From positions 1 through 64,000 of the IMG/VR virus record IMGVR_UViG_3300033067_000628: 64,000 nucleotides of DNA, one strand, 5' to 3'. How positions within the stretch are numbered: position 1 is the first letter of the stretch; the number at the start of each line of letters is the position of its first letter. This stretch comes from a virus (taxonomy: Duplodnaviria; Caudoviricetes). The position numbers and the translations under genes were made by a program. Of the stretch, positions 36,546 through 55,667 are shown one piece after another. The notes beneath the pieces were generated by a model, which saw only the letters and a list, made by a program, of their open reading frames with translations, had not been told where the DNA came from and did not search any database.

Positions 36546-36548
36546 CTA

Positions 36549-36995: not shown

Positions 36996-36997
36996 AG

Positions 36998-38122: not shown

Positions 38123-41100
38123 TATTTCTTATCTATCCCCAAAGAGCGTAGGGCTGTTTGTTGTGCTATCGGGCTCTTGTCACCGAAGATACCAGCAATA
38201 TAATTAGTCCAGTTATCTATACCAGTAATTAGATCTTGGTATCCCCATTGTATTTTAGAGGTTAAAGACCAATAAGAATTTTCCTGCCCATTGAGTCCTG
38301 CTTCAAAAGGGACACCTTTAAACATCAAAGGACTAATAAGAACCGGAGTCGTAAGATCTGCTACACCAGCATTCATATAGAAGTACCTAGTAAAGGCACC
38401 AGCTGCTATATCTGCAGTCTGGGTATACTGGAATGCTTTGAATGTAGTAAAGCCGTTAGTAGCCAAGATCTGACCAAGGGTACGAAGCTTAGCAGTAGTA
38501 AGCTGTTCTGTTGCTAACTTCTGGGCAAGTTTCTCGCCTATCTTTGTTTGAACACCCTTAGATACGAATGGCAGAATACTACGCTCTAAGGCAAACTGAC
38601 CAGCCTTACCAGCAGCAGCACCAGCAAGACTAAAGGAAGCACCAAGTGTTGGTATAGCTGTCATAACAACAAGGCCCCACAGTGTGTAGTCTATTATAGA
38701 ATAGATCTTGTCCATTCTATTATTAAACACAGCCACCTGCATCATAGAGTTGCCCGGGTTAGCATGGCACAGAGCATGAGGTATAATGTTAGTTACCCAC
38801 CCGGCGCTTACGCTATAGTGATGTACAACATTCTCAACCTCAATAGGGCCATTCATGTCAATATACTTATCATCAAGATAGATAACGTCCCATGGCTTGA
38901 TAGCTCTACCTGTAAGCAAGATGTTATTACGATACATAGGACGTATCTGCTTAGCCATTATATTTGTAGCAACCTTAGCAGCTTGATCTCTACGTCTAAC
39001 GTTCAAGTCAGTATGGACATACATCTTCTTATTCTCAAGAGAGATATGTTCATTAAACTGGAAGCCCATGTGGTCTGTCTCTTGCTTAGTAGGGAAGATA
39101 GTCCACTCAACATCTTCTACTACACTCTCATCATAGTCTCCTTGGAATAAGCCGACCTTATACCAGGTATCATTATCAGTAGTAATAGAAGCTGGGTATC
39201 TAACCAAAATAGTATTGCTCATCTCACGGACTGATGCACCTATATTGTTCTTAATGATATCGACACCACTAGAGATATAATGATAATCCCTAAATGGTTT
39301 CATATTAAGAGCTGGTGGGAATTGACCAAAGCCACTATTCTTAATATCGCTAATACGATCCTTAACATTGATATCAATAGCAGAAGCCTGAATGTACTCT
39401 CTGAAGAAGTGCACATATGCTCTGAAGTATACCAATGAATCTATTATATAGTTGACAATATCGTCCTTCAAGAAGAATGATATGTTATGTATATCAAGGT
39501 GTAGCCTATTAGCCATTGCCTGGAAGATAGGATCGAAGACAGTTTGAATATTGACTGCATCGCCAACAGATGATATAGACTTAGATATAGAACCTAAGTT
39601 AAACTTAGCTTGATTAAGCAGGAAGTTAAATCCATCTCTAGTCTTAAGCTTAGCAACAATCTCTTCTTGAGTCTTGCCAAGCTGTGCCAGTATAGATGGA
39701 TACGCAGCAACTGCTTCAGTTAGTGCAGCAATAAAACGATCTGCCTTATTACGTTGCTCAAAGTTTAAACCACCTTGGAAGGTAAGGCCTTCAAAGAATT
39801 CTGACACATCATCTATAAAGCTAGACTTCTGTGTAAAGCCTACAGAGGTTAGCGTTGTAACTGGTTCATATGTATTGAATACCATATCAGCTACAAGCCC
39901 ATCATTTAGATTATCTAGTAAAGACTTAGCGGCAGTAGAATCTATATTGGCTCTAGTAAAGATCTCATTACCACGATCGACATTGTCTAATGGTGTAATG
40001 CTTTCAATGAGAGATATTCTAAACTTATTAAGCTCTTGATTAGGCAATGGGCCTGTTATTGTATCTATAGTATCCATCAAAGGAGAGAAGTTCTTAGATA
40101 GATAGTCTGTAGAGAACCCATAGAACGAGGCTATCATTAGATAAGCAGCCTTGTCTTTATTACCTAAGACATTGGATATGTAATCCATATCGTCTTTAAA
40201 TGACCTAGCGTAGTTGGCTTTAATAGCCACCGCACCACCAACTCCTTCTGTAATAGAAGCATAGCTACTGGTATTTACATTTGGATGCACAAGAAGCTTG
40301 TACCCTAGATAAGAGAATCCTTCAGGATCGATTGTAACTAAATTGCCAGCCTTCTTATTTTTGACAATCAATGGCTGAGTTATAAAGTCTTGATCTTTTG
40401 AAACTGTAACTATATTAGGGTCACCAAGAATCAAGTCCATAGAGTTATTACCAAAGTAATAACTAGAAACGAAACCATCAAAGACCCTTTGGAAATCTTC
40501 TACGACTTCCTTCTCTTCTTTTGCTAGGACTTTTCTATACTCATAGTTTCTCTTAGGAGATCCTTTAGTGAAGTAATACAACTGGTCAGGCTTCCCATAG
40601 AATAAAGTAGCTTCACCGTCATAAGGAACTACTTGACATATATAGTCCCATGTGTAGTTTGTTGTATTGGCTAACAGATCCCAAGCTGGCTGTAGCGGTA
40701 TTACCCAGCTACGAGCTTCCCATCCTGTAGTGTCAACATCTGCTATTGGATTGAACCGTGACTTGTTAACATCGGGTACCCATATATTCTTTAGACGTAA
40801 GTCAACACCAGCTTTACGGTTACCTAAGAAGTTCCAAGTACCAGCTAGTGTCAAACCTTCACCACCAGCATAACCAGATTCACCACCGAGTGTACCGTAT
40901 TGGTTCTGTATAGACTTAGTAAGTGCACCGTCTAGTGCAACGTTTGCAGATACCTTTAGGAGCTCATTAGTTTCTTCTTGTGATAGTACCTGTCCCATAC
41001 CGGCAGGATTGGCATCACGTATAGTTCTAACTACCAAGTCTTTGACAGAGCTATTCTCTATGCTGCGTAGTTCAAATGATACTTGTTTACCAAGTAGCTC

Positions 41101-44100
41101 TGCCTTCCAGCCTTGTGCTACAACAGTCACAACATCACCATAGATGACTTCAGCCACACGACCAGTAAAGACAATGTCAAGGTTCTCAGCATCAGCAGAA
41201 TAGCCTGCACGTATCTGAATCTTCCTACCTTGCTTTAGCTCTAGTCTAGACAAGAAGTTATTAGAGGTAAGATCATCACCAGAGTTTGGAAGCACTAAGC
41301 CATTAACTTGGCCTTTATTCCAGCTAATCTTGTCACTGAAAGAAGAAGCCTGTAGAAGCTGTAGCGGATCAGCTATTCTAATAGTAGCTAAGTCAGCATC
41401 GTTTTTGTCAGACATAATGTCAATAGACTCTATAGCATTATAGCCATAGAAGTTATCTCTGACAAATATTCTATCTCCAGAGTTATACTCTATTAGATAT
41501 AGCTTAAAGACAGGGAATGCTCTAATCATATCATGACGAAGGTCAGACAAGCTCTGTGTAATCTTCAGCATAGTATTCTGAGATTCACCATATACAGAGT
41601 TAGATATTGTGACACCATCATCAAGACCAGCAGCGGCTTTAGTGATAGCATCTGTCATTACCTGGTCCCAAGTCTTACCAGATATTTGTGCAGACAGATT
41701 GATTGCTGTTCTAAATACAGCGCCACCTTGCAGTCCGTGGTTTCTCTTATAGGTAGCAACCTCTTTACCAAGGTGAGTAGTCTGAAAGATAGGAGTATTA
41801 AATGACAGGGTATCAAGTCCATATGCATAAGATAGGAACTTAGTCTTCTCAGATCCATTACGCTTTAGTATTTGGACGAGCTCTGTGTCACTCATCTCAT
41901 TGTATATACCATTAGAGTAAGTCTTCTTAGCTTGCCTAAAGGCAGCTATGCTAAGGTCCTCACCTGCTTTACGAACAACTTCATTATTGAATACAGTGTT
42001 GTTACGTATATAGCTAGGCATGCGTTCTATAATAGAAGCAAGAGTAAGCTGGTCTATTTTCTTGATAGACTCTACTGTCTTCTCTGTTACTTCATACTGA
42101 CCAGAAGAATTTAATTCAGTAACTCTAGACTTAAGCTCACCATTAAGTCTACCAGCTTCTGTAACTAAATATTCTACGTCATACGGTATATTGATAGTAA
42201 CACTATCAAGCTGTGCAAACCATTCACTATACTCTTTACTTAGGTTGTTTCTAAGGTCTTCCAGTTCTCGCTCTCTATAGAAGAAGACAGCAGGAGATAC
42301 AGGGGAGTTGGCCTTAGTGATTAACTCTAGCTGTGCACGTTGTACGTTATTATCCTTGAGAGATTCAGTAGGATCGTTAGAGTAGTCAGCAATATTAGGA
42401 TTGATTATACCATAGTCATGATAGGTATAGGCAAACAACTTCCAGTAGTCATCAGGGAAGTTAGGCTCTACAAGATCGAACAGCTCTTCGTATGTGATAT
42501 AGATAAAGTCAGGATAGCAAGTGGCTCTCTTCTTAGTTGTAGTAAGAGTGCCATCAGGTCCATAGGTAAGGGTATCGTCATTAGATCGACTCTTATCCAA
42601 GGCGCTGTTAGCATCCTTATTGATAATATCACCCTTGATTTCGATAGCACGTTCTAATGCATCAAAGGCATTAGCAACACTAAGTCTGCTATAGAGATAA
42701 TCAGTTACTGGAACCTTACGCTTGTTTACTATAGTAGCAAATAAATGCTCAGCATATAGATTCTTTAATGTTACATCTCCATTGATTAGTTTATTATGGA
42801 GAATAACATATAGGTCTCCTCTACTGAATTTGTTTGTAATCTTTTTGAATAGACCAAAGATTTGTTTCTTTTGTTCTTCGGTTACATTAGAGGAGAATAC
42901 TAGCATGCTGTTCATTAGCGCACCAGCTGTCTCATCATCTAATGTCATACCATTAAAAGTCTCTGAGTCTGCAACACCTAGTGAGACCAACTCTTTGAGT
43001 ATATCTAAACCTACAGAACCAAGCTGATCCAATGTAGGACCTATACCGATATTGGCAGACTGTACCTTACCACTAATAACCTTATCTTCAAGTATAGCCT
43101 TTAGGAACCTAGTAGCTACACCAAGCGGGTCTTCTACGAATGTACCTGTAGAGTCAGCACGTCCACCTTTAGAGTAGACATCTGGCTCTAGCAAAGCAGC
43201 GATCATTGTATCAGGATTGAGTATACTGAACTGCTCATCATCAGCACCTTCACCATAAAATACAAACTGTGAATAGAAGTCATCTTTATTCTTTGAGTTC
43301 TCAAACAGAGAAGCAAAGAAATCATGAGCAATAGTAACAGTAAGGCCATTGCTTAAGATAACAAACCCATAGTCAGTAAAGAAGTTCGGAGAAGTTTCTG
43401 CAAAGTTGATAGTAACATCTCTACCATTCGGTATCTCAGATACAGTAGAAGTTACAAAGCTCAACGGATAGAATAGCTTACCGCTATTAGATATCTTCTG
43501 ATCTATAGATAGATTATACTCTTGATCATTAAATAGATCTGTAACAATAGATCTTAGCTTCCATCCATTGAATCGTGTAGACCTATCTGATGCTCTGACA
43601 AAGAAGTCAGCAGCAGACTTATAGGTATTGATATCACGGAACATTTCAAGGTCATTAGTACGCAAGCTGATAGTTGCATTACCAGAAGACACGCCCATGT
43701 GCTGGGCAGTAGGATAAGACTCTCCCTGAAGACGCTTGAAAGAGAACTTGTTCCTAATAGAATATGACAACTGAGTTACAGAAGTGCCAGTACGGTCATC
43801 TTTAAAGATATCATTTTTAGGATTAAGGTTTAAGTCTACTAGCTTTTCATAAGCAACAAAGTACTTAAGCTGTAAGTCATCACCTTTAAATGACAAGGTC
43901 ACATCTGGTGTAACAAAGAAGTCTCTATAGTATCTATCCATGTACATAGTAATAGCTCTATTAAGCCAGAAAGCACGACGTGCATCCGGTGTAGCAGTGT
44001 TCTTAATAGATCTATACTGTAGAGAATTTCGTAGATAGTTTGAAACACTAATGCGCTTAAGTGTCAAGACTACTATTACAGAGTTAATAAAATCTGGATG

Positions 44101-44895
44101 GCTAGATGCTTGTATGCCAACGAAAGCAACAGGAACGTGGCCTGTATTGTCATAGTTCTTTATACCATCAGCTAAAGTAGCTTCAGTAGCAAGTCTAGAA
44201 TCTAAGTTGGCAACATCAGAAGTTTGAATAGCTAGCTTACGTGCTAAGTTAGCTTGCCATTCGTCATAGGTACTTTCTTTAATATCAGCTCCATAAGACT
44301 TAGCTAAGTTAAAGTCTTCAGGACCAATTGGACCAACGCCACCAATGACTTCACGTATCTCTTGGTTGGCTTGAGCTATAATAGATTCATTAGCAACTCG
44401 TATAGACTTTTCAATCAAAGCCTTATCAGGAGACTTAGCATTGTTCTCTGTGAACTTATTATACAGAGCATCATTAATTACATTATTCTGAACAGATGTA
44501 ATAGGAGATACTCTAAAGAGCGCTATTAAAGGGAGCAGACCTTTCTTGATATGCTCAGTGCCACTGAATAGCATTGTGACTTGTATGTCAGCATAACCAG
44601 TACCATCATCGGTCAAGAAGTCTGTACTTGTTCTAGCACCTTGTACGGCTATGACAGCCTTACTTTCAAGTATCTTAATGTCCTGTACTTCACCACCGTA
44701 TATGTGAGGACCTATCTTAAACTTAGTAGACTCAGTAGACTTAGAAGTATAGATATGTCTATTATACTTCCTAATGAGAGACTCTTCATCAAGACCAGAT
44801 ACAGTATTAGCGTTATCACTCTTTGGGTTCCAAAGGTAATTAACGAATGATGTTACATCTACATCAGATGTATCGTCAGTATATTCTAGAGTCAT
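38122..44895 (-). CDS. Giant baseplate hub protein
   Basis: Hub-like segments LKQGRKIQIRAGYSADAENLDIVFTGRV...VVAQGWKAEL and GRAIKPWDVIYLDD...IEVENVVHHYSVSAGWVT (gp27/gpD-like). It follows the tape-measure locus. Confidence 0.7.
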   Translation of the reverse strand: MTLEYTDDTSDVDVTSFVNYLWNPKSDNANTVSGLDEESLIRKYNRHIYTSKSTESTKFKIGPHIYGGEVQDIKILESKAVIAVQGARTSTDFLTDDGTGYADIQVTMLFSGTEHIKKGLLPLIALFRVSPITSVQNNVINDALYNKFTENNAKSPDKALIEKSIRVANESIIAQANQEIREVIGGVGPIGPEDFNLAKSYGADIKESTYDEWQANLARKLAIQTSDVANLDSRLATEATLADGIKNYDNTGHVPVAFVGIQASSHPDFINSVIVVLTLKRISVSNYLRNSLQYRSIKNTATPDARRAFWLNRAITMYMDRYYRDFFVTPDVTLSFKGDDLQLKYFVAYEKLVDLNLNPKNDIFKDDRTGTSVTQLSYSIRNKFSFKRLQGESYPTAQHMGVSSGNATISLRTNDLEMFRDINTYKSAADFFVRASDRSTRFNGWKLRSIVTDLFNDQEYNLSIDQKISNSGKLFYPLSFVTSTVSEIPNGRDVTINFAETSPNFFTDYGFVILSNGLTVTIAHDFFASLFENSKNKDDFYSQFVFYGEGADDEQFSILNPDTMIAALLEPDVYSKGGRADSTGTFVEDPLGVATRFLKAILEDKVISGKVQSANIGIGPTLDQLGSVGLDILKELVSLGVADSETFNGMTLDDETAGALMNSMLVFSSNVTEEQKKQIFGLFKKITNKFSRGDLYVILHNKLINGDVTLKNLYAEHLFATIVNKRKVPVTDYLYSRLSVANAFDALERAIEIKGDIINKDANSALDKSRSNDDTLTYGPDGTLTTTKKRATCYPDFIYITYEELFDLVEPNFPDDYWKLFAYTYHDYGIINPNIADYSNDPTESLKDNNVQRAQLELITKANSPVSPAVFFYRERELEDLRNNLSKEYSEWFAQLDSVTINIPYDVEYLVTEAGRLNGELKSRVTELNSSGQYEVTEKTVESIKKIDQLTLASIIERMPSYIRNNTVFNNEVVRKAGEDLSIAAFRQAKKTYSNGIYNEMSDTELVQILKRNGSEKTKFLSYAYGLDTLSFNTPIFQTTHLGKEVATYKRNHGLQGGAVFRTAINLSAQISGKTWDQVMTDAITKAAAGLDDGVTISNSVYGESQNTMLKITQSLSDLRHDMIRAFPVFKLYLIEYNSGDRIFVRDNFYGYNAIESIDIMSDKNDADLATIRIADPLQLLQASSFSDKISWNKGQVNGLVLPNSGDDLTSNNFLSRLELKQGRKIQIRAGYSADAENLDIVFTGRVAEVIYGDVVTVVAQGWKAELLGKQVSFELRSIENSSVKDLVVRTIRDANPAGMGQVLSQEETNELLKVSANVALDGALTKSIQNQYGTLGGESGYAGGEGLTLAGTWNFLGNRKAGVDLRLKNIWVPDVNKSRFNPIADVDTTGWEARSWVIPLQPAWDLLANTTNYTWDYICQVVPYDGEATLFYGKPDQLYYFTKGSPKRNYEYRKVLAKEEKEVVEDFQRVFDGFVSSYYFGNNSMDLILGDPNIVTVSKDQDFITQPLIVKNKKAGNLVTIDPEGFSYLGYKLLVHPNVNTSSYASITEGVGGAVAIKANYARSFKDDMDYISNVLGNKDKAAYLMIASFYGFSTDYLSKNFSPLMDTIDTITGPLPNQELNKFRISLIESITPLDNVDRGNEIFTRANIDSTAAKSLLDNLNDGLVADMVFNTYEPVTTLTSVGFTQKSSFIDDVSEFFEGLTFQGGLNFEQRNKADRFIAALTEAVAAYPSILAQLGKTQEEIVAKLKTRDGFNFLLNQAKFNLGSISKSISSVGDAVNIQTVFDPIFQAMANRLHLDIHNISFFLKDDIVNYIIDSLVYFRAYVHFFREYIQASAIDINVKDRISDIKNSGFGQFPPALNMKPFRDYHYISSGVDIIKNNIGASVREMSNTILVRYPASITTDNDTWYKVGLFQGDYDESVVEDVEWTIFPTKQETDHMGFQFNEHISLENKKMYVHTDLNVRRRDQAAKVATNIMAKQIRPMYRNNILLTGRAIKPWDVIYLDDKYIDMNGPIEVENVVHHYSVSAGWVTNIIPHALCHANPGNSMMQVAVFNNRMDKIYSIIDYTLWGLVVMTAIPTLGASFSLAGAAAGKAGQFALERSILPFVSKGVQTKIGEKLAQKLATEQLTTAKLRTLGQILATNGFTTFKAFQYTQTADIAAGAFTRYFYMNAGVADLTTPVLISPLMFKGVPFEAGLNGQENSYWSLTSKIQWGYQDLITGIDNWTNYIAGIFGDKSPIAQQTALRSLGIDKK

Positions 44896-47800
44896 TAGTA
44901 TAGGTCTCCCATGTCTGGGTGTGTAAAGTCACTGTTCTCATATGCGCTAGCTAGTCGATCTTGGACCCAGCCATTTCTATAAGTCCTGTCGTCCTGGATA
45001 GTTATACTACCATAGTTAGGAGCATAGACAGATGTAGCTATTTCATCACGGATGTCTTGGGTATTGACAGAAGCATAGCTTGCATTAGTTTGAGTATAGC
45101 TTGCACCTGGAGAGGCAACCCGAACAGTAGGAGGCCTCATGTTAATAGGATTGATATACGAGTTGTCATTCTCCTGAGTAACCATAGGCTCAGGAGGCAA
45201 CGTAGTAGATCTCATTCTAAAGGCATTAGAAGACTTAAGTGATGGCCTGTCTAGTTCATCAGAAGTGAACATACTAGACAAGGCACGTAAGCCTACTACA
45301 GCAGCACCAACACCAGCTACTAGTTTCCAATTCTTCTTAAACCACTGCTTTGACTTGCCAGCTACTTCACTAGTAACTTCAGCAGCTTTACCTTCTACTT
45401 GAGCAGCCTTAGCCTTAACAGCTTCGTTAGCTTTAGCAATCTGGTCTTGCATAGAAACCCGGCTATCTCCCTTAAGGAGCTTAGCAGGATCAATACCTTC
45501 ATGCTGGAACATCTCAGTTATCTTCTCTAGGTCACCAGGACCAGAGGTAGCTCTACGGTAGATATCAGGGAACGAGCTAGCATTCTTTAAGCCTTCAGGT
45601 GTAAAGATAGAAGCTCTCATGTGTGCCATAGCACCATAGATACGACCCACCTGTTGGCTCATTGTTTCGATAGCTTGTTCTGGTGTAGCTACTTTAGGAC
45701 CATAGTAACGCAGCTTACCAACTTCATTCATCTTAGTGAAGAATCTTCTAGCAGAGCTAGTGGCTTCTTCAACTGCCATCTCTGGCGTATAGGCATCACC
45801 AAGCTTATCAATTTGTTGCTTGACTCTATAGCCTACACCAAGGTAGTCTTTAACTAGCATCTCAGCTAAGTCACCACCCTTTTGAATTGGTGCTTGCAGG
45901 ATGTTATGTTGGAATAGGGATACGTTACGCATCAATACTTTCTTATCGATGCCACCATCTGATAAGATTTTTTGATACTTAAGTATGTCACTCTCTGTGA
46001 AGGATTGCCCAATAGGGCGCTTCTTAAAGTTACCTTTGTTCTTTAATAGCTTGTTGAGATTATCAGCTATAGTCTTAGGATGAGCATCAGACATTAGCTC
46101 ATGAGAGAAGCCGAAGGTAGGATACTCAACCATGTAAGACACAGCAGGAATCTTACCGAAGCTAAAGAACTTCATGGCATATTCCATCGTGTTCTGATGA
46201 GATAGCTTCTGCTCTTTCATGAAGTCAGTAAGCAACATATCCTTGCCACTCTTCTCAGCAGCAGCCTGTAGCTCTTTTTGGTAAGACTGATATTCTGCAG
46301 AAGCACCTTTTATTTGTGCTTGGAAGAACTCATGCATAGCAGCATCATCTGCTTCACCATACTTCTTAGGATCCATCATTAGTTCGATAGTATCCTTGTC
46401 GTTGTCTCTATGCATTCTCCATGTCAAGAAAGAGCCAACCAAAGCACGGGGTTCATGCAGAGCATTAATGCCAGTCTTGGTTACTTGATCTTCTGCCATT
46501 GGATCAAACACCATCTTAACAACGTTAACGTGACCACCACCGTGTGTAGGGTTAGGGTATGCTACGCCCCAGATAGGCTCACCAGCTAAGAACTTGTCAA
46601 GTGTTTCTTGTGCAGCCTTCTCAGTATAGCCAGATCTATTAGGCATCTTAGAGAAAGCTTGTCTAGCCATATTCTCGGATATACCAACAGTGAAGTCCTT
46701 CTCAGTCAAGTTAGATGCAGACTCCATAGCTTCTGATACAGTCATACCTTTAGGCATTGGTCTGACTCTCATGCCACCAGGCATTGAAGCTGAAGATAAA
46801 ACGTTCTTCTTAAGGAAGCCTCCGCTCTTACCAGTTCTAGCGTACTCTCTATATACACCTTGAACATATTGTTCTAGTGTACCTTTAACTGTACCCTTTT
46901 CACCAGGCTCATTACCAAGTGCAGATATAGCACCTAGTGTCTTGTACTCTAACGTATCAGAGCCTATACTCTTAGGAAGACCTGGAGTTAGATTCTGTAA
47001 TGAAGGTGCAAAGTTTTTACCAATAGCCGGGACTGGAAGATATTTAACCTTAGCAGCATTCTCTGGCATGCCTGGTTCTTTAACCTTACCAAGCAATGGA
47101 ACATGGACCTCTTCACCAAGGTCTATATAGAATCCCTTTTGCAGATGTTGAGGACGATTACGTGAGCTGAATAGTTTACTATTGCTAAGCTGTTCTTCTA
47201 AGAAAGTACCTCTAGTTAAGTCCATTGAAGTGGACAGATCGCCAAAGGTTTCCATTGCTTCTTTACGAGACAAGACAGGAAGGCCTGTAGCCTTAACGGC
47301 ATCATCTCCAAGTAGAGGAGCAGTGATCATCCTGAAGTGACTATCTTTAGCAACACTCAAAGAGTTACTAGTAATGAATCCAGTATCAAAGAAGTCTTTA
47401 TCAATATTGAAGCCAGTCTTATTCTGCCACCAGCTAGCCATACGCATAAAGATAGGATTGTCCTTTGGCTTGATACCAGTCAACGACTCCATACCAGATC
47501 CATATCTCTTGATAAGGTCTAGTCTTACACGGAAGGCGTTTTGTTGCCGCATGATATCGTCTGTTTCAGCAGCACGTTCCCATAGAGAATCTATAAAGGT
47601 TCTAGCACCAGGAGTGATACCAGAATCAGAATAGCCTAATAGGCTAGCCATACCTTTCTCAGAAGGACTATCAGTTGTGTATCCCTTAATCTGTCTGCTA
47701 GTGAAGCCCATCTTTTTAAGAGCTACATCACTAACCTTTTCAAACTCTGGTATGAAGTCCATATCTTCATACGGAGTATTTGGTATTAGATACTCTAACC

Positions 47801-50282
47801 CATCTTCTGACTTCTTTAGAATGAGCTTATTCTTAATGCCCATTTCTGAAGCTGCCTTCTCATATTCTCTATAGAACATAGAAGGACCAGATCCTTCACT
47901 AGAAGGAACAGACAAGCCAGCTAAGCCAGTACGGTGACCGAATATCTTCTCAGCATAAGCTTGAGAAGTTAAAGATTCTTCACTAGATATAATATCAGAG
48001 AAGTCAAATATACTTGTACCTTCAAGTACATCTTTACCAGGATTGAGCAAGCTAACTCTTTGATTGCCATGGTAAACAGATACAGAGGTAGGCGTACCAC
48101 GAGCAGCAAAGTTAAGAGTTACATTGTCATCAAAGCTAGAGAAGTCAGCGCTAGTAAGGTAAGCAGCATGATATGGCAAGCCTTTAAAAGCTTTGCCAAG
48201 ATTCTTGTATTGCTCTGGGTTAATCTCAATACCAAGGCCAGGAGCTTGATATCTCTTGTTTTTATTTAGAGACTCAAGTATATCAGCATAAGGTGTATCA
48301 GTCAAATCATCAGAGCCGGCTAGAGTTTTAAATACCTTCTCTAGGGATTGCTTACTAAATGCTTTCTTTAGGTTAGTAGTAGGACGTATAACATCCTTAA
48401 ACAACTCTGCTCCACTATGCGTAAGTATAGCACCAGCATCACCAAAGAGATTTTGGTTAACACCTAAACCAGCAGATGGAATATAGGTTGATACAACTGG
48501 TATTTTGGTAATAGGATTGACAAGACCTCTACCGAGTATCTTACCTTCTGCACCTCTAGTAGCCTTAATGCCTGCTTCATAGGAGCGGAAGTCTCCCATG
48601 CTCATGCCTACAGTTTGAACTCTGGCTTCGCCAAATCGCTCTACTCTACTAGCAGCTATACGCTGTATACGCTCAGCATCTGTAATTTCACGAGGCTTAC
48701 CAAATTGAACGCCCTTCTTGCGCATAGCAGAAGAAGTGCTGCCAGGTATTAGATGCTGTTCTATTCCTTCAAGAGGAACCGTGCCGTCTTTAGGTTTAAC
48801 TAGCCAGTCATAAGGGGACACACCTTGTGCCCGCATATCTAAGGCTTGCTGTGTAGCTTTCTTATATGCTTCCCATATAGGCTCAGGGTCAGTCATATTC
48901 GAACCAGCAAAGATAATATCTCTGATGGCATTATTACGACCAAGCATCACACCAGAGTCTATTGCCTCGTAAGACATATAGAAGCCCGGCGTCATCGCTA
49001 CTTCACCTCTAGAGCTAGGTGAGCTTAGCAGATTACTTAAAGACTTACGAGATCTATTTCTGCCAGTCTTAAGAGCTATTGGTATATTGCGCCTACCAAG
49101 ACCAGAGTAAGGATCGAGTACACCCTTTTCAAATTCACTAAGTGCTATCTCGGCAGCAGGTACAACTTTATGATCAACTACCTGTTGCTTGGCAAGTCTA
49201 AGTCTATCACTGACATTAGCTGTGCCTCTTCTAAAGCCCCACTTGGTTACGTCTTCACTTACGTTCTCAGCATAGATAGGCTGGAACGAATCAAGCAAAC
49301 CATGTTGACCAGCGTATATACCACCAGTCTCTGATATAGTAAACGCTAGGTTTTCACCACCAGCAGCAGACAGCTTATTGACTGTAGCTCTAAACCGTTC
49401 ACCATATTGTTCACCCCAGAAGTTCTTAACTCTACTAATGAACTCTTCAGGGCTAGCACCAGCTCTGGTGCCAGAAAGATAATAAGACTTAGAGTCCTTG
49501 CTGATACCTTTGAGAATAGTACTGATACCAAATGGATCAGACTTAGATCCAACTGTATCCGCTAGTACATCAAGACCCGTGACGCCTGCTCTGTTAAGGA
49601 TCTGTTTGAACTCAGGAAGTCTTCCTTCAGAAGCAGCCTTCTCATATGTAGCTTCGAAGACACCTTGTATCTGCTGAGCAACATTAAGTTCAGTAACGGG
49701 CTTGCCAAGTCTTTGGAATGACCTATTAAGGAAGTCAACAGTAGTGCCAGGCTTAGCTGTCTTACCTACGAGACCTACTATATCTTCAAGCTTAGTACTT
49801 GGTACTAGATCATTAAGGTCTGTAAAGAAAGCTCTAGACAAAGACTTAACATCAACGAAGCCAGCTTCATCAGCCCTGAACGCACTAGGGCCAGGACCTT
49901 CTCTAAAGGTAAAGCCCTTAGTCTTGGCAGCGTTCCAAGACAAGATAGCATTGCTTGTATCTGGGGAGTTCATACCCCAGCGCTTGGCTAGATAGTTTAC
50001 AACCTTAGGATCTCCAATGAGACCTTGATCAAGCATACCTTTGCTTGCTCTAAGAGGTTCATCACCAGTCTTCTTAAGAGTTGAGAATGGTAATCTATAT
50101 AGCTCAGAGGTTTGTAAGGTAGCACCAAGTGCTAGTTGGTCTCCAACCTTATCACTCTCAGCAGCTAGACCAGGAGTATGTGGTAAATGAACGAAGCCCA
50201 GCTTAACAGTCTTTTGACGATTGAGCAAAGAACCGAAAAGGTCCTTCATCATTTGCTCTCTAAACTGCAGCGGCTCTTCCAT
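44895..50282 (-). CDS. Tape-measure-locus protein containing a two-barrel (DPBB) RNA polymerase-like region; putative virion RNAP or pseudo-RNAP
   Basis: Collinear motifs: FGDAGAIL (about beta FEDSIL), YHGNQRVSLLNP (about beta RHGNKGVISKINP), GKSGGFLKKNVL (about beta' GKQGRFRQNLL), TVGISENMARQAF (about QCGLPKKMALELF), AYPNPTH (about NRAPTLH), RDNDKD (about ADFDGD; 46392-46406). The C-terminal hydrophobic helix WKLVAGVGAAVVGLRAL is typical of tape-measure/ejection proteins. Confidence 0.65.
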   Translation of the reverse strand: MEEPLQFREQMMKDLFGSLLNRQKTVKLGFVHLPHTPGLAAESDKVGDQLALGATLQTSELYRLPFSTLKKTGDEPLRASKGMLDQGLIGDPKVVNYLAKRWGMNSPDTSNAILSWNAAKTKGFTFREGPGPSAFRADEAGFVDVKSLSRAFFTDLNDLVPSTKLEDIVGLVGKTAKPGTTVDFLNRSFQRLGKPVTELNVAQQIQGVFEATYEKAASEGRLPEFKQILNRAGVTGLDVLADTVGSKSDPFGISTILKGISKDSKSYYLSGTRAGASPEEFISRVKNFWGEQYGERFRATVNKLSAAGGENLAFTISETGGIYAGQHGLLDSFQPIYAENVSEDVTKWGFRRGTANVSDRLRLAKQQVVDHKVVPAAEIALSEFEKGVLDPYSGLGRRNIPIALKTGRNRSRKSLSNLLSSPSSRGEVAMTPGFYMSYEAIDSGVMLGRNNAIRDIIFAGSNMTDPEPIWEAYKKATQQALDMRAQGVSPYDWLVKPKDGTVPLEGIEQHLIPGSTSSAMRKKGVQFGKPREITDAERIQRIAASRVERFGEARVQTVGMSMGDFRSYEAGIKATRGAEGKILGRGLVNPITKIPVVSTYIPSAGLGVNQNLFGDAGAILTHSGAELFKDVIRPTTNLKKAFSKQSLEKVFKTLAGSDDLTDTPYADILESLNKNKRYQAPGLGIEINPEQYKNLGKAFKGLPYHAAYLTSADFSSFDDNVTLNFAARGTPTSVSVYHGNQRVSLLNPGKDVLEGTSIFDFSDIISSEESLTSQAYAEKIFGHRTGLAGLSVPSSEGSGPSMFYREYEKAASEMGIKNKLILKKSEDGLEYLIPNTPYEDMDFIPEFEKVSDVALKKMGFTSRQIKGYTTDSPSEKGMASLLGYSDSGITPGARTFIDSLWERAAETDDIMRQQNAFRVRLDLIKRYGSGMESLTGIKPKDNPIFMRMASWWQNKTGFNIDKDFFDTGFITSNSLSVAKDSHFRMITAPLLGDDAVKATGLPVLSRKEAMETFGDLSTSMDLTRGTFLEEQLSNSKLFSSRNRPQHLQKGFYIDLGEEVHVPLLGKVKEPGMPENAAKVKYLPVPAIGKNFAPSLQNLTPGLPKSIGSDTLEYKTLGAISALGNEPGEKGTVKGTLEQYVQGVYREYARTGKSGGFLKKNVLSSASMPGGMRVRPMPKGMTVSEAMESASNLTEKDFTVGISENMARQAFSKMPNRSGYTEKAAQETLDKFLAGEPIWGVAYPNPTHGGGHVNVVKMVFDPMAEDQVTKTGINALHEPRALVGSFLTWRMHRDNDKDTIELMMDPKKYGEADDAAMHEFFQAQIKGASAEYQSYQKELQAAAEKSGKDMLLTDFMKEQKLSHQNTMEYAMKFFSFGKIPAVSYMVEYPTFGFSHELMSDAHPKTIADNLNKLLKNKGNFKKRPIGQSFTESDILKYQKILSDGGIDKKVLMRNVSLFQHNILQAPIQKGGDLAEMLVKDYLGVGYRVKQQIDKLGDAYTPEMAVEEATSSARRFFTKMNEVGKLRYYGPKVATPEQAIETMSQQVGRIYGAMAHMRASIFTPEGLKNASSFPDIYRRATSGPGDLEKITEMFQHEGIDPAKLLKGDSRVSMQDQIAKANEAVKAKAAQVEGKAAEVTSEVAGKSKQWFKKNWKLVAGVGAAVVGLRALSSMFTSDELDRPSLKSSNAFRMRSTTLPPEPMVTQENDNSYINPINMRPPTVRVASPGASYTQTNASYASVNTQDIRDEIATSVYAPNYGSITIQDDRTYRNGWVQDRLASAYENSDFTHPDMGDLY

Positions 50283-50289: not shown

Positions 50290-53200
50290 CTATCTTAAAG
50301 CATCCTGGTAGAACATAAATCTATTGTTTTTCCGTTGATCTGAGTAATGACCTTCATACCAGTCAATACTTTGATCACTACCTCTTTGAGAGAATTTAGT
50401 AGCTGACCCAAATGGGTTCTTAGTATTAAACATTGCCTCTAGATTTAGTCTTACGCTAGCAGCTGTAGGATCAGTTATAGACACAGCGGGACTGGTAAGG
50501 CCCGGGAACCTCAGGTCAGCCTCTCTCGCTTGTCCTGGGTAATAGCCGAACCTGTGGAGGTTATCTGATACACCATTGATACCACCCTGTATGGCTTTGA
50601 TTCTAATAGCTGTATCAGGGACAGAAGGATTCCAGCCCATCCAATCTTCTGCTGGTAGGCTGTGCTCCTTAAAATAATCAAGTGTAGTTTGGTCTGCTAC
50701 CATCTGTGCATTAGTACCGGTATCACCAGCATTGTTTTGCCACACTGCCGATAAGACTTGCTTCATTCTGTCAGGCACTACAGCAAGGATCTTCTGTCTC
50801 TTATCGGCAGGAGCATTAACGAACTCATCATAGAATGGTCTATCGTATCTATTGAGTGTAGCTTTGTATCTAGTGTCATCACCAGTAGCCTGGAACTGAG
50901 CTAAGCCATAGACCTGAGTTCTCTTTGCTTCTCTAGAATAGATCATAGCAAGCTTCATGTTGCCTTGCTTCTCCGCCATATCTTGTAGAGATCTATCCTT
51001 TACATACTTCAAGTAATCAAAGTAATCCTCTGTCTCACGTTCCTTCTTGACATGCTCAGGAACAAATCCATGCTCTAGTGTACCAGTAGACACTGCTCTA
51101 GCAGTAGACCCTGCAAGACCTATCAATCCAAAGACAGCAGTTGTAGATGCAGGGTTATCCTTTAATGCAGGGAATGGACTTAAGAAGCTAGCAAAGTTAC
51201 TAGTGGCAATACTACCAATAGCTAATGCCTTGGTGGTTGCCGTTAATGGGTCTTGGCCAATAACATCATAGAAGGCAGGACGTACAATGCTTTCGTATGG
51301 ATTATCCCAGTCAGCATATGTCTCACCCTCAACTCTATTCTTGACATAAACTCTATATGGATCTGTGAATGGGAATAGCTTAGATCCAAGTATTGGCTTC
51401 TCTGATAAGAAGCCTTGAGTTACTTTGTTCCATCCAGTTCGGACTGTAGTAGTGAAAGCGTTTTCGTTTGCTCTAGCAGCTTGTTCTTGTGAGCTAGGTG
51501 TATAGCTCTTGAAGTTAAACTCATTCTCTTTAGCAGCTCTTTGCTCTGTAGCCTGTGCTACCTTACTCTTCCAGTAAGGAGACAAGTCCATCTGATTTAC
51601 CTTTTGCTGATAAGCAAAGTATGCAGATGAATAAGGAGCTACGTCAGATAGAATTAAGAATCTATCTACGTCACTATATACTCCAGTTATACCAGACTCT
51701 AGCCTGTTAACTGATTCATATCCAGCACCAGGGAGTCTATACTCACCACCAGGTATCTTAGTATAGCTATCACCTTTAGTGAAGTCAGTAAAGTATGTTC
51801 TATCAGCTTCAAACTCAGAAGCACTACCAGGTAACCAAGTGGGTTGCGTATTACGTATAGGGTTAATCTGTTGATTGATCTTAGATGCAACACCATAGTC
51901 TGATAAGATAAAGCGTCTTAGGAATTCAGTCTCACCAAGCAAACCACCTAAGTTCATATCATAGAATGATCTACTATAGCTTGCCATGTTAGTGGCATCT
52001 GCCATCTTATAGCCTTGATCAAACTTGATACCGAATAAACCTAATGCATACTTCCAGACACCCGACGGTTCTAGTGCTACGTTAGTCCACTTATCTACTC
52101 TGTCTCTAATGTTATCTGGTCTATTATATGGTACTAAAGACTTAGGGACATCAGAGATACCAAGCTCTTTTGCAGCTGTTATTGGTATACTTTTATCAGC
52201 TATATTAGAAGCAACAACTGCATCAGTTTGTTCTTCTATATGCATCTGCTTAGTTGGCTTAATAATTTCACCAATCGTATCTGCTAGAACAGGTCCAAAG
52301 ATAGGGACCTCTTCAAACATCTTAGCAGTTACAGGATATGGTCTATCGTAATAAGTCTTACGCTCTAATGCATATGGGTCAACAACATTACGTAAGCCGA
52401 ACCAGTTACTGAAGTTAGGAAGCATAGAGCCATACTTCCAATAGCCTTCTTCAGAACCATAGAGGTTTGTATTATATGGCTGTGCCTTAAGTTTAGCATA
52501 CCAGCTAGGCTCATAGTGATCTATAGCTCCACCTTCGAAAGGTTGATAACCTAATGTCCACCATCTACTTTTTTTGATAGGGACCTTATCCTCACCAGAG
52601 TATTCTCTTTTGAGAGATTCAGAAGACTGTCCTGGTTGTGGACCACCAACAGCAGCATATATAGAAGCTGCAAAGGCAAGACCTTTGCCGACTTTGCCAG
52701 TCTTCTCCCAAGCACCTAGTGCTTTAACACCAGCAGCAATAGTACCAACTACACCAACACTAAGTCCTGGTGTAAGATCATTCTCAACATAATCAACAGC
52801 TTTGGTAATACCAAGAGATTCACGAACCTTCTGTTGACCTACTCTTAGATTAACATAAGCATCAGCAGCTAACTCAGATGGTTTCTCTCCTATTACTTTG
52901 CCAGCAAGATAGTCAGTATACTTGACTGCTTCTGTGCCAAGCATGTATGCTGTTGGTATAGCAGCTACACGTAAGGTATTAGCTAATAGGTTACCAGATG
53001 GTTTAAATCCTATCCCTAACAAGCTAGCACTGGCTAGCTTATTGAGACGGATCATCATATAGTTAGTAAAGTCGTATGCCTTATCTAGATTAGATGCACT
53101 AGCAGCATAATGCTTAGGACGTATATTAAAGTCCTTATCGCCAGTGATTGTAATACCAGTAGGACCATCAGATGGCAATCGCTTACCAGCAGTAGTCTCA

Positions 53201-54696
53201 AGGCTTTGAATACCACCTCTGCCGAAGCCAGCATATAGATCGCTCTTATCGATCTTACCTTCAACACCGGCACCCTTGTTTACAAGAACAGCATCTTCAT
53301 TAGTGCCAGTGTAAAGCTGGAATCTGTTCCACCATCCACGTAGACCTTTAAAAGGTCCAGTCTTAGGTGTAAGCTCACTAATGTCAATTATCCCTTGACC
53401 CGAGTAACTACCTTTGGTTATCTCTTTACCAGAGTCTAATACAGTCTCAGGTATTACAGGAGATAAGATACGACTATAGAATGAGTCGTGGGTATACTTA
53501 TAGTTCCTAGCATATACCTCAGCGTCACCTCTACCAACAGCACCAGAGTTCTTAATACCCTGTAAGACAGTCTGTATAAATCCACCACGCTTCTCGTGGA
53601 ACTTAGGACCTACACCAGTCTCGTCTTGTAGAGTTTGGAACCATGTCTTATCAGGAACAGGTTCGCCCTCTTTAGGTTCTCTAACCTTAGGAGGTTCTTC
53701 TCTTAGCTTAGCTGCAACGAATCTAGCATCATTAACTTCGCCAAGCGTTTTGCCTGTTGCTATCTTCTCTACATTAGTACCAAGAGATTTGTATACATCT
53801 CCACCAATGAATATCTTCTGTGCAGCAGTACCAGACTCAACACCAAGAGAGGCGACCTTTCTTGGATTCTCAAAGAAAGATTTAGCTGTACTTAATAGGC
53901 CAAACGGGTTAAAGGTTTGAGATACAGTATCAAGGAAATCATATGGCCTTGTTATTCTAGTATCTATTAATCTGCCATCTTTAGCCTTGAATAGCTTAGA
54001 GTCAACTATTTGATCAGTCTTAACAAGACCTTGATCAAGAGCTCTTTGTACGATACCAATCTCAAGACCACCACTCTTAACAGGGCCTGCAGCTCTGCTA
54101 ATGAAGTCACCTTGTCTAGCTATTAACTCACCAAAGGTAAGAGGAGTTAAGTCCTTCTGTAAGAAGCCTAAGCCCGCTTGCTCTGGGTTACTGCGATATA
54201 GCTTATCAAGATTACCCTTAAATAGTCTTTCAAGGTTAGGCCTATTAGTAGCATTACGTGGATCGTATATAAAGCTTAGAGCAGAACCTAAGTCTTGTAT
54301 ACTAGAATAGCTATCGAGTCTAGCAGAACCCTGGGCCGTTTGTATTACAGCTCCACCAGAGTCTTTAGGCAATGACAGTAGCCTATAAAGACCATCTGCT
54401 ATCTCAGGCTCTATGTTTGCTTTAGACCCTTGCTTACTGAGACTACCTAAGAATCTAGCCCCAGATCCAGCTAGCTCTGAGAGTTCACCAAATAGGTTTC
54501 TATTAAATTGCTTGCCTAGTATCTGTGCGCCAATGGCAATGACACCAAGCTTAGCCATCCATTCAGAATCTCTTCTGTTGGATTCTTCTACTGACTTTTG
54601 ATATACCTGTTCGCTATTGTCACGACTAAACGAAGACGGTGCTATATACCGTTCTGGTAAAGGGCGTGACTGTTCACGATCTGGTATATCAGTCAT
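50290..54696 (-). CDS. Tape measure/ejection protein
   Basis: 1468 aa, directly after the tail chaperones. Several Gly/Ala-rich hydrophobic helices (GLSVGVVGTIAAGV, GLAFAASIYAAVGG, AVFGLIGLAGS). Confidence 0.6.
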   Translation of the reverse strand: MTDIPDREQSRPLPERYIAPSSFSRDNSEQVYQKSVEESNRRDSEWMAKLGVIAIGAQILGKQFNRNLFGELSELAGSGARFLGSLSKQGSKANIEPEIADGLYRLLSLPKDSGGAVIQTAQGSARLDSYSSIQDLGSALSFIYDPRNATNRPNLERLFKGNLDKLYRSNPEQAGLGFLQKDLTPLTFGELIARQGDFISRAAGPVKSGGLEIGIVQRALDQGLVKTDQIVDSKLFKAKDGRLIDTRITRPYDFLDTVSQTFNPFGLLSTAKSFFENPRKVASLGVESGTAAQKIFIGGDVYKSLGTNVEKIATGKTLGEVNDARFVAAKLREEPPKVREPKEGEPVPDKTWFQTLQDETGVGPKFHEKRGGFIQTVLQGIKNSGAVGRGDAEVYARNYKYTHDSFYSRILSPVIPETVLDSGKEITKGSYSGQGIIDISELTPKTGPFKGLRGWWNRFQLYTGTNEDAVLVNKGAGVEGKIDKSDLYAGFGRGGIQSLETTAGKRLPSDGPTGITITGDKDFNIRPKHYAASASNLDKAYDFTNYMMIRLNKLASASLLGIGFKPSGNLLANTLRVAAIPTAYMLGTEAVKYTDYLAGKVIGEKPSELAADAYVNLRVGQQKVRESLGITKAVDYVENDLTPGLSVGVVGTIAAGVKALGAWEKTGKVGKGLAFAASIYAAVGGPQPGQSSESLKREYSGEDKVPIKKSRWWTLGYQPFEGGAIDHYEPSWYAKLKAQPYNTNLYGSEEGYWKYGSMLPNFSNWFGLRNVVDPYALERKTYYDRPYPVTAKMFEEVPIFGPVLADTIGEIIKPTKQMHIEEQTDAVVASNIADKSIPITAAKELGISDVPKSLVPYNRPDNIRDRVDKWTNVALEPSGVWKYALGLFGIKFDQGYKMADATNMASYSRSFYDMNLGGLLGETEFLRRFILSDYGVASKINQQINPIRNTQPTWLPGSASEFEADRTYFTDFTKGDSYTKIPGGEYRLPGAGYESVNRLESGITGVYSDVDRFLILSDVAPYSSAYFAYQQKVNQMDLSPYWKSKVAQATEQRAAKENEFNFKSYTPSSQEQAARANENAFTTTVRTGWNKVTQGFLSEKPILGSKLFPFTDPYRVYVKNRVEGETYADWDNPYESIVRPAFYDVIGQDPLTATTKALAIGSIATSNFASFLSPFPALKDNPASTTAVFGLIGLAGSTARAVSTGTLEHGFVPEHVKKERETEDYFDYLKYVKDRSLQDMAEKQGNMKLAMIYSREAKRTQVYGLAQFQATGDDTRYKATLNRYDRPFYDEFVNAPADKRQKILAVVPDRMKQVLSAVWQNNAGDTGTNAQMVADQTTLDYFKEHSLPAEDWMGWNPSVPDTAIRIKAIQGGINGVSDNLHRFGYYPGQAREADLRFPGLTSPAVSITDPTAASVRLNLEAMFNTKNPFGSATKFSQRGSDQSIDWYEGHYSDQRKNNRFMFYQDALR

Positions 54697-55301
54697 TATA
54701 TCTTACCTATCTCATCCCAGTCTATTTGATCTGCAGACATCATATCAGTGATGTCATCAGTAGAAGACATACCAGGCGCTACTGGGTATACTTCAGGATT
54801 GATTAGCTTACCAAAGTCAATAGGCTTGCCAAGTGCTTCTTCTGCTTTAGCAAACAATTCTATCTGTTCTTCCAGTGTCATCTTCTGTACATCAGAAGGA
54901 GTATAGGCCCTGAAGGCTGTACATATATAAATCTCTATTATAGTTTGAGCTTGTTGGGCAACTTGTCTTTTCTCTTCTAGTACCTTAAGGAAAGTTTCTG
55001 CATTTTGGAATCCAGACAATACCAGTATATGTTCTGCTATATGATCTGCATGGATTGCTTTGCTATGAGATAAGTAGTAGTCTAATCCTCTTGGTGCATC
55101 ATTATATAAGGTTGCTATTCTAATAAGAGTATCATTGATAGTCACACCATCTAGATACTTCTCTAATGATATCACTGTATTGTACTCATCAAAAGTAAGG
55201 GGCCTGACTATGAAGTCAAGGCCCTCTACTTGTATCAAATACAGAGACTTATAACCATCAGCTTTAAGGCTGATTATCTTGTCTATTGTATCTACCTTCA
55301 T
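54696..55301 (-). CDS. Tail assembly chaperone-like protein
   Basis: FIVRPLTFDEY...IAEHILVLSGF, acidic C-terminus. Located between the tube genes and the tape measure. Confidence 0.6.
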   Translation of the reverse strand: MKVDTIDKIISLKADGYKSLYLIQVEGLDFIVRPLTFDEYNTVISLEKYLDGVTINDTLIRIATLYNDAPRGLDYYLSHSKAIHADHIAEHILVLSGFQNAETFLKVLEEKRQVAQQAQTIIEIYICTAFRAYTPSDVQKMTLEEQIELFAKAEEALGKPIDFGKLINPEVYPVAPGMSSTDDITDMMSADQIDWDEIGKI

Positions 55302-55304
55302 TCA

Positions 55305-55667
55305 TTATAGCTTCACTGGTTCTGCATCAAGGCCACCGAAGCCTGAGGCTACGAGAATGGCATCACTAATTAGCTGTACGGTACCAGCGGGGAGTTTCTC
55401 TATTGGATCTGTTGAATAGATCAGGCAGACTTCAAGAAGACTCTCTATTTCTTTCTCAGCTACTTCAAGCTTAGCTTGATCATCAATAGCTTGAGCCATT
55501 GCTTCGTTACGAGCTTTAAGCAAGGTACGCCATTCAGATCGTTCTACGAATCGATAGACGAATTCCTTACCAGCTATTTTAACGTATAGCGGTTCATAGC
55601 CTTGTTCTTTGGCACCTGCTGATGCTGCTAAGGCTGCTTCACTCGGACCTTTAACTTCTGTATTCAT
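55305..55667 (-). CDS. Tail assembly chaperone
   Basis: 120 aa, FVYRFVERSEW...ISDAILVASGF. Typical TAC size and position. Confidence 0.65.
   Translation of the reverse strand: MNTEVKGPSEAALAASAGAKEQGYEPLYVKIAGKEFVYRFVERSEWRTLLKARNEAMAQAIDDQAKLEVAEKEIESLLEVCLIYSTDPIEKLPAGTVQLISDAILVASGFGGLDAEPVKL

Follow-up and report, generated by a model that had tools for sequence, protein, structure and literature searches.

An RNA polymerase-like core in a protein at the tape-measure locus of a contractile-tailed phage

The DNA analyzed here (the window) is a stretch of 64,000 nucleotides, positions 1 to 64,000 of the IMG/VR virus record IMGVR_UViG_3300033067_000628 (Caudoviricetes). Its gene at 44895..50282 on the minus strand encodes a 1795-residue protein that is, with high confidence, a single-chain homologue of the two-barrel RNA polymerases, very diverged in sequence. 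A first-pass annotation of the window had proposed that an RNA polymerase-like core is hidden in this protein at the tape-measure locus of a contractile-tailed phage, and the proposal is supported by the predicted fold, profile comparison, and invariant residues. The protein is likely to be catalytically competent. We infer by analogy, and favor only slightly, a fuller scheme in which the active enzyme is carried in the virion, injected, and transcribes early genes.

Results

Conserved motifs of the 1795-residue protein

The first-pass annotation had listed six polymerase-like motifs in this open reading frame (ORF), and a motif check found all six at the positions given there. They are given below in window coordinates, followed by the candidate triad and the regions of the protein.

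48423-48446, (-): FGDAGAIL, residues 613-620, including D615
48039-48074, (-): YHGNQRVSLLNP, residues 737-748, including H738
46791-46832, (-): GKSGGFLKKNVLSS, residues 1151-1164
46653-46691, (-): TVGISENMARQAF, residues 1198-1210
46542-46580, (-): EPIWGVAYPNPTH, residues 1235-1247
46392-46448, (-): RALVGSFLTWRMHRDNDKD, residues 1279-1297
46392..46406, (-): candidate metal-binding triad D1293, D1295, and D1297 (DNDKD), aligned on NADFDGD of β′
48663..50282, (-): N-terminal region, residues 1-540, with collinear conservation in homologues
47403..48515, (-): candidate β-like barrel region, residues ~590-960, with FGD (G614, D/E615) and the invariant R742, from motifs and conservation
45483..47315, (-): β′/Rpb1-like module, residues ~990-1600, from Foldseek and VIA-align
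46314..46838, (-): β′-type double-psi β-barrel, residues 1149-1323, with the GKxGxL...R1174, PxPTHGxGH, and NRDxDKD motifs, from isolated-barrel fits and hhalign
44898..45383, (-): C-terminal module, residues ~1634-1795, with a hydrophobic helix (~1651-1675) and the most conserved tail, from a hydrophobicity scan

When 1.84 billion representatives were searched exhaustively with HMMER, 26 homologues were returned, most of them 1700-1890 residues long and 24-36% identical over residues 560-1500. Conservation was analyzed in an alignment of 19 full-length metagenomic homologues that share 21-34% identity with the query. Among the columns that never vary are G614, R742, R1174, P1245, H1247, R1292, D1293, D1295, and D1297; K1296, H1251, G1155, and V1255 are nearly invariant, and an acidic residue is kept at 615. 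The family consensus reads FGDaGa..T..G, R742-x-T-A, G-K/R-x-G-x-L ... R1174, F-x-V-G-i-S, P-x-P-T-H-G-x-G-H-x-x-x-V-K, and N-R-D-x-D-K-D. Because the motif residues are invariant at such low overall identity, the motifs exceed chance. The DxDxD triad, on whose conservation the first-pass annotation had staked its reading, is thus unchanged in all 19 homologues. H738, which it had singled out in the second motif, is not conserved, and R742 is the invariant residue there. The level of conservation is even over the full length and highest in the C-terminal 45 residues. Residues 1-540 gave no sequence match in Pfam, PHROG, or the Protein Data Bank (PDB).

The protein had no tblastn match among 50,697 phage records, a pattern search of viral contigs with the single protein found nothing, and a language-model search of the ESM Atlas yielded nothing usable. 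PF00623 (RNA_pol_Rpb1_2) detected nothing in the contig at E values up to 10, and it matched 14 of 14 control genomes.

Similarity of the second half to β′/Rpb1 subunits

The structure of residues 540-1600 was modeled with AlphaFold2 from a 25-sequence alignment (mean predicted local distance difference test score [pLDDT] of 71.9; predicted template modeling score of 0.57). All of the top 50 Foldseek matches in the PDB were largest subunits of RNA polymerases (β′/Rpb1-type), from the non-virion enzymes of phages AR9 and phiKZ, bacterial β′, archaeal Rpo1, RNA polymerase (Pol) III, and African swine fever virus, the best being AR9 7s01_d. VIA-align, an aligner independent of Foldseek, was run over 48,161 representative chains. 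Its top ranks were occupied by Pol IV, Pol I, vaccinia, AR9, Pol II, plastid, and archaeal enzymes, together with those of African swine fever virus, Pol III, phiKZ, and Mycobacterium tuberculosis β′; these polymerase matches had Z scores of 7.5-9.2 over 236-416 residues and lay in model residues 437-1061. When the top 1000 chains of Foldseek were aligned with VIA-align, 268 had a Z score of at least 8, and Pol IV (8xmb_A) was the best (Z 10.0, 369 residues, root-mean-square deviation [rmsd] of 5.4 Å). Over both VIA-align runs, the polymerases of African swine fever virus, Pol I, II, and III, vaccinia, archaea, AR9, and phiKZ reached Z scores of 8-9.3. The alignments with Rpb1-type chains comprise 345-429 residues (Z 8.7-10.0), run from model residues 420-452 to 1037-1060, and cover residues from about 15-20 to about 1400 of the matched chains. 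From this extent, the similarity is that of an Rpb1-like module of ~600 residues (protein residues 990-1600), more than a barrel, and Rpb1-like architecture past the barrel, from the clamp core to the funnel/cleft region, is matched in the model. Isolated double-psi barrels, among them CDC48-N, VAT-N, and designed barrels, fit model residues 625-784 (protein residues 1164-1323), which hold NRDNDKD, with an rmsd of 2.3-2.9 Å and Z scores of 7-8, a frequent best score of VIA-align for unrelated models. What gives the structural case its weight is that the lists are unanimous, that the alignments are long, and that they accord with the sequence, not the Z scores alone.

The sequence was compared at the level of profiles by hhalign. 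The family gave a nonsignificant E value of 0.22 with E. coli β′ alone, the best local alignment falling on the NADFDGD loop, and an E value of 0.041 over the whole barrel with exon 1 of AR9 g270 alone. With a β′-N profile of eight jumbo-phage subunits (phiR1-37, PALS_2, phiKZ gp55, PhiEaH1, Simmy50, AgentSmith, RP12, and AR9), the E value was 1.7e-5 (Prob 78.5%, 148 columns), and protein residues 1149-1309 were paired with template residues 277-435. The motifs are collinear in this alignment: GKxGxL...R lies on KxGxIRK...R, PxPTHG on NRNPTL, and NRDxDKD on NADFDGD. For this protein, the β′-N match is the one statistically sound sequence link to polymerases. It bears out four of the six motif equivalences drawn in the first-pass annotation, those of β′ type; the two of β type found no sequence support. 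The β′-like module itself is corroborated by fold as well as by profile–profile comparison.

The candidate first barrel

Several single-chain polymerases aligned with both halves of the model in VIA-align: QDE-1 (7y7p_A, Z 8.0, model residues 52-1039), RDR2 (Z 6.8, 50-1054), P74-26 gp62 (Z 6.2, 70-1037), and P23-45 gp96 (Z 6.1, 70-769). In BFVD, segments of crAss-like polymerases align over ~1200 columns (E 1.4e-3). In the ESM Atlas, the nearest three cluster types are phage or bacterial chains of 690-1000 residues that combine PF00562 (Rpb2 domain 6) and PF00623 (Rpb1 domain 2). They align to model residues 2-808, 17-1057, and 37-809 over 464-496 residues, with template modeling scores of 0.35-0.49 by target. 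The secondary structure predicted for model residues 55-227 appears to mirror that of the second barrel, with a strand, helices, a strand, helices, a strand pair, a long loop carrying the invariant Arg, and a strand. A comparison of the family with E. coli β by hhalign gave nothing. Since the matched single-chain polymerases extend over the two halves of the model, a first, β-like barrel is probably present. Of the two-barrel core that had been proposed, the second barrel with its DxDxD is established by fold and profile, and the first has neither isolated-domain nor profile support.

The gene occupies the slot of a tape measure

The IMG/VR contig is 73.7 kb long with an estimated completeness of 38%, and the window is its first 64 kb. 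The genome size estimated from these values is ~190 kb, so that the earlier label of jumbo phage is borderline. Every gene lies on the minus strand, and the contig is a single long structural module, including ~35 kb of fiber and appendage genes; the terminase, portal, and major capsid protein genes lie in the part beyond the window. Besides several small genes, the tail region contains three giant genes of 1468, 1795, and 2257 residues, the second being the polymerase-like gene:

57978-59507, (-): tail sheath (phrog_16991 tail sheath, E 4e-54)
57287-57958 and 56448-57239, (-): two tube-like paralogues of 223 and 263 residues (both phrog_9206)
54696..55667, (-): two small genes of 201 and 120 residues, in the place of the tail chaperones ORF143/144 of Bacillus phage 0305phi8-36 (by position only)
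50290..54696, (-): upstream giant of 1468 residues, homologue of 0305phi8-36 ORF145 (tblastn)
44895..50282, (-): polymerase-like gene, 1795 residues (ORF list and translation)
38122..44895, (-): downstream giant of 2257 residues, baseplate hub, homologue of 0305phi8-36 ORF147 (BLASTP, phrog_20474, phrog_8809)
35305..38122, (-): baseplate genes for a 374-residue protein, a gp25-like protein, and baseplate J (Pfam/PHROG), including
36549-36995, (-): gp25-like sheath initiator (weak PF10934 and phrog_261)
35305-36432, (-): baseplate J (PF04865 Baseplate_J, E 2.5e-16; phrog_6)

Since sheath, tube, and baseplate genes are present and flank the polymerase-like gene, the phage has a contractile tail, as had been read from the sequence before. 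The two small genes at 54696..55667 had no family match in PHROG or Pfam searches.

Cultured relatives were identified by the terminase and the 1468-residue protein: Bacillus phage 0305phi8-36, Moorella phage MTATph1, Acinetobacter phage ME3, and Bacillus phages WH1, Edson, and KLEB27-3. The tblastn matches of the 1468-residue protein include 0305phi8-36, MTATph1, ME3, and WH1/Edson. The annotated order in 0305phi8-36 is sheath, tube, tube paralogue, ORF142, two chaperones (ORF143/144), ORF145, ORF146, ORF147 (baseplate hub), and gpV-like and gpJ-like genes. The 2257-residue protein matches ORF147 by BLASTP with E values of 5e-18 and 1e-14. With ORF145 and ORF147 homologues on either side, the polymerase-like gene is the positional counterpart of ORF146, a "hypothetical tape measure protein" that was detected in virions by mass spectrometry (PMC2147016). 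ORF145 is also a virion protein. The first-pass annotation had placed the gene between a tape-measure or ejection gene and the hub. The hub assignment is confirmed. The upstream neighbor is the ORF145 counterpart rather than an established tape measure, and in cultured 0305phi8-36 it is the slot of the polymerase-like gene itself that carries the tape-measure annotation.

The similarity of the protein to ORF146 is weak and located at the C terminus (hmmsearch E 3.8e-6 for one comparison; hhalign E 0.0019), where both have a hydrophobic helix followed by a tail with an I-x-D-x-R-like ending. Apart from the gene position, flanked by the ORF145 homologue on one side and the gp27-like hub on the other, this C-terminal helix and tail are the features shared with ORF146, which differs in its 2537 residues, in having neither DxDxD nor PxPxH, and in showing no similarity outside the C terminus. 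In the study of Hardies et al., the stretch of ORF146 that could be aligned with its counterparts was likewise limited to the last 60 residues, and the tape-measure role was deduced from the tail length (PMC2147016). A polymerase core as a general feature of the slot was considered and rejected, ORF146 and the middle protein of Moorella phage MTATph1 having no DxDxD. The synteny, from the sheath through genes of ~1450, ~1790, and ~2300 residues to genes of ~380, ~146, and ~380 residues, is kept in three more metagenomic contigs (L003, L005, and L006), whose homologues of the polymerase-like protein are 22-34% identical.

The genes around the polymerase-like gene are tightly spaced. Seven nucleotides separate the stop of the upstream giant from its start, and its own stop overlaps the start of the downstream giant in TAATG (44895-44899). 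Promoter-like and terminator-like sites are not more frequent than in shuffled sequence. The structural module is one late operon.

Discussion

Comparison with known two-barrel polymerases

In gp96 of Thermus phage P23-45, which has counterparts in P74-26, G20c, and TSP4, a virion two-barrel RNA polymerase is fused to the tape measure protein (PMC10770324; PDB IDs: 8h2m and 8h2n). The 1795-residue protein resembles gp96 in being a single-chain two-barrel polymerase at the tape-measure position, with a membrane-spanning element and a proposed role in which it is injected and transcribes the first genes. The siphovirus protein, however, has its polymerase in the N-terminal 1200 of 5002 residues, together with a long ruler and a metallopeptidase, whereas here the phage is contractile-tailed and most of the chain is polymerase, followed by only ~200 residues with one hydrophobic helix; a Pfam search detected no peptidase or other domain in it. 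The catalytic loop is NRDxDKD instead of DFDGD, and the structural matches to this group (8h2m_A, Z 6.1, 97 residues; 8f5m_A, Z 6.2, 205 residues) are lower than those of β′ type. The family does not fit the motif filter [RK]xP...DxDxD used for this group and would therefore have escaped the published survey of viral two-barrel polymerases (PMC10770324).

The virion RNA polymerase gp66 of crAss-like phage phi14:2 (bioRxiv 10.1101/2020.03.07.982082) is likewise a large single-chain two-barrel protein that standard sequence models do not detect, and it is packaged in the virion. It is a podovirus cargo, not a protein of the tail-tube slot, and its motif is DFDxD compared with NRDxDKD here. No sequence similarity was found between the 1795-residue protein and crAss gp66, and the structural match in BFVD is weak. 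The multisubunit polymerases of jumbo phages, such as the non-virion and virion enzymes of phiKZ and AR9 (PDB IDs: 7s00, 7s01, 7ogp, and 8que), share the β′ barrel, as the profile match given above indicates, but consist of 4-5 polypeptides, are detected by Pfam PF00623/PF00562, and are encoded outside the tail module. Fused β-β′ chains (the PF00562+PF00623 type of the Atlas) and the YonO/QDE-1-type enzymes have the same order of barrels in one chain, but at 690-1000 residues they possess neither the 540-residue N-terminal extension nor the C-terminal membrane module, and Pfam recognizes them. One such single-chain polymerase, orf99, is encoded elsewhere in the genome of 0305phi8-36 (PMC2147016).

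By analogy, P23-45 gp96 and crAss gp66 are the closest proteins in function. In descent, the closest are the β′/Rpb1-type enzymes and the fused β-β′ phage proteins, not the QDE-1/YonO/gp96 clade. The protein is not a member of the Pfam Rpb1 families, the gp96 family, or the crAss family.

A tie between DNDKD and the "DxDKD" entries for the non-virion enzymes of AR9 and BpSp (Supplementary Data 4 of PMC10770324) was examined and rejected. The string listed for g270, the non-virion β′ gene of Bacillus phage AR9, is "DDDKD"; it occurs at residue 49 and was probably picked up through an artefact of the regular expression. The true catalytic GDYDG of g270 stands at the end of exon 1, where it is interrupted by an intron. 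In the g270 locus (L010:20344-22521), exon 1 ends in ...SGDYDG, and the HNH-bearing intron interrupts the catalytic loop itself.

Proposed mechanism and alternative explanations

Here, we propose a scheme based on the predicted structure, the conserved residues, and the position of the gene. A β-like half (residues ~590-960) followed by a β′/Rpb1-like half (~990-1600) would form one polymerase chain, in which the catalytic Mg ions would be bound by the NRDxDKD loop, carried on the double-psi barrel of the β′/Rpb1-like half. This polymerase would be embedded in the tape-measure-slot protein of a 0305phi8-36-like tail module, with the C-terminal helix and tail retained. The protein may be made late, alongside the tail proteins, and its C-terminal helix and tail may direct incorporation at the hub end, as the C termini of tape measures do. 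Sheath contraction would expel it before or together with the DNA, the hydrophobic helix would anchor it at the inner membrane, and the injected polymerase would transcribe the first (leading) phage genes independently of the host polymerase. The same scheme of injection and transcription was proposed for P23-45 gp96 (PMC10770324).

A number of observations weigh against this interpretation. Neither the whole protein nor the family profile has a match in PHROG, in Pfam at E values up to 0.1, or in PDB sequences, and no NCBI-type sequence model detects the protein. The E values of the Foldseek matches in the PDB are weak (2e-3 and worse), and Z scores of 8-10 are just moderately over the background stated for VIA-align. 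In the β-like half, comparison of the family with a seven-sequence β C-terminal profile by hhalign gave nothing at the expected place (E 0.79), no isolated-domain structural match was obtained for the barrel, and the loop of R742 was modeled at a pLDDT below 50. The contig, at its partial completeness, contains the structural module only and no early genes. Furthermore, a folded polymerase of ~1000 residues cannot fit the lumen of the tail tube, and the protein would have to be unfolded or located elsewhere.

That the resemblance arose by chance in an ordinary tail protein of no polymerase ancestry is very improbable. The failure of the standard family models and the score with E. coli β′ alone (E 0.22) would fit that explanation, but hundreds of polymerase chains, and nothing else, head the structural lists, the profile–profile match is collinear in its motifs, and both the Atlas and BFVD lead to polymerase families. 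An exapted, catalytically dead polymerase fold, serving as a structural protein of the tail lumen, a tape measure, or a channel, would be consistent with several features: NRDxDKD and PTHG replace the canonical NADFDGD and PTLH, the first barrel has a single invariant basic residue, the slot is that of a tape measure and the protein has a membrane helix, and ORF146 fills the same slot without DxDxD. Against it, 19-25 homologues that are otherwise ~25% identical retain the three Asp residues, R1292, R1174, P1245, H1247, and R742, together with an acidic side chain at position 615. Such a pattern is typical of a constrained active site, and a scaffold does not need an invariant metal triad. A dead fold is unlikely.

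Two further explanations retain an active two-barrel enzyme. It might be made late in the infected cell for late transcription or priming and not be delivered by the virion, its location among the tail genes being incidental. The polymerase fold and the conserved active site would fit this role too. On the other hand, the gene is part of a tightly coupled tail operon and takes the slot of 0305phi8-36 ORF146, which mass spectrometry detected in virions and whose C-terminal helix and tail are retained, and the position is kept in all four contigs examined; an enzyme made with the last structural genes would also have little left to transcribe. We regard such a late intracellular role as improbable. 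Alternatively, the main job of the enzyme could be that of a membrane-anchored motor pulling the genome in by transcription, or the enzyme could mainly copy RNA or make primers, in the manner of QDE-1 and the RNA-dependent RNA polymerases. QDE-1 and RDR2 are among the matches covering both halves, the C-terminal membrane helix would suit an enzyme held at the entry pore, and transcription coupled to DNA translocation was proposed by the authors of the P23-45 study (PMC10770324). The strongest and longest matches, however, are DNA-dependent largest subunits, the sole significant sequence match is the jumbo-phage β′, and polymerase-driven entry was considered slow for a genome of such size by Hardies et al. 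(PMC2147016). A motor or RNA-dependent enzyme is thus not probable, although it overlaps with the scheme of a virion-borne enzyme transcribing early genes.

Candidate relatives in cultured phages and implications

Searching BFVD with the model identified uncharacterized proteins of cultured phages: A0A172Q021_2 of Acinetobacter phage ME3 (E 2.8e-4, prob 1.00, 760 columns) and A0A075BUT7_2 of Microcystis phage MaMV-DC (E 2.6e-4). For A0A8S5SD80_1, a "Minor tail protein" of the uncultured Siphoviridae sp. ctnpt50, the E value was 7.5e-9, and the matches to A0A075BUT7_2, A0A8S5SD80_1, and A0A7R7G2L5_2 extend over 950-1250 columns with E values from 2.6e-4 to 2.2e-9. ME3 is a cultured phage of Acinetobacter baumannii, and its ME3_36 (L009:18367-23178), a protein of 1603 residues with five homologues, is in the same slot between ORF145 and ORF147 homologues. 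It has an invariant motif pair, R-E-P-A-Q-G ... G-D-H-D-Q-D, and a C-terminal hydrophobic helix. The hhalign comparison of the ME3_36 family with the query family was nonsignificant (E 0.08), the best alignment falling twice on the REPAQG/GDHDQD (DxDxD) region, and that with the β′ profile was nonsignificant as well (E 0.053) and at another place. ME3_36 could be a further, more diverged protein of this type; this lead depends on the BFVD match, in which the ME3 entry A0A172Q021 may be ME3_36.

More tentatively, there may be a broad and so far undescribed class of contractile-tailed phages, ME3 (ME3_36, DHDQD) and MaMV-DC among them, in which the protein of the tape-measure slot has been replaced by or merged with a membrane-anchored single-chain polymerase. 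Such an enzyme would be ejected via the tube and would transcribe the entering genome, coupling DNA entry to host-independent early transcription, and it might have arisen from a β-β′ fusion independently of the P23-45 and crAss enzymes. We think this possible but doubtful.

Searches of the open-access literature turned up no report of a polymerase that occupies the tape-measure slot of a myovirus. To our knowledge, injected two-barrel RNA polymerases have been demonstrated experimentally only for crAss-like podoviruses and siphovirus P23-45. If the proposed scheme is true, the present protein, encoded among the tail genes of a large myovirus, would add a third lineage of independent origin, carriage of an own polymerase would be recurrent across all three tail types, and the annotation "tape measure" would hide enzymes. 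It would also raise the mechanical question of how a polymerase of ~1000 residues travels through or sits in a contractile tail. The structural matches in ME3 and MaMV-DC would make the idea testable at the bench, and the nearness to β′/Rpb1 rather than to the QDE-1/YonO clade bears on how frequently β and β′ have been fused in evolution.

Other features of the window and its relatives

The 7-nucleotide gap before the polymerase-like gene (50283-50289; ggttataa ATG) has no recognizable Shine-Dalgarno sequence. This and the TAATG overlap would fit a host that seldom uses Shine-Dalgarno sequences. No tRNA genes were found in the window. In the region 10753-34637, the genes at 28212-30203 and 32943-34637 have only weak PHROG matches to "virion structural protein." The adjacent tube-like pair (56448-57958) parallels the tube and tube paralogue of 0305phi8-36.

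In Moorella phage MTATph1 (L008:19780-27136), an insertion element (transposase CDS0028 and IstB-like ATPase CDS0029) seems to divide the middle giant gene, which has no DxDxD, and the helix and tail of the C-terminal module are encoded by an ORF of their own (CDS0031, 313 residues). In the related contig L003 (4299-10004), the ORF145-like giant holds an intein of ~425 residues with a LAGLIDADG endonuclease (PF14890, PF14528, and Hint). The insertion corresponds to residues 922/923 of the 1468-residue protein (about 51928-51933 in the window), after ...NLGGLFGE, and the stretch around it is otherwise 55-57% identical. Inteins are usually located in conserved functional sites, and the position hints that the ORF145-like protein has an important conserved site there.

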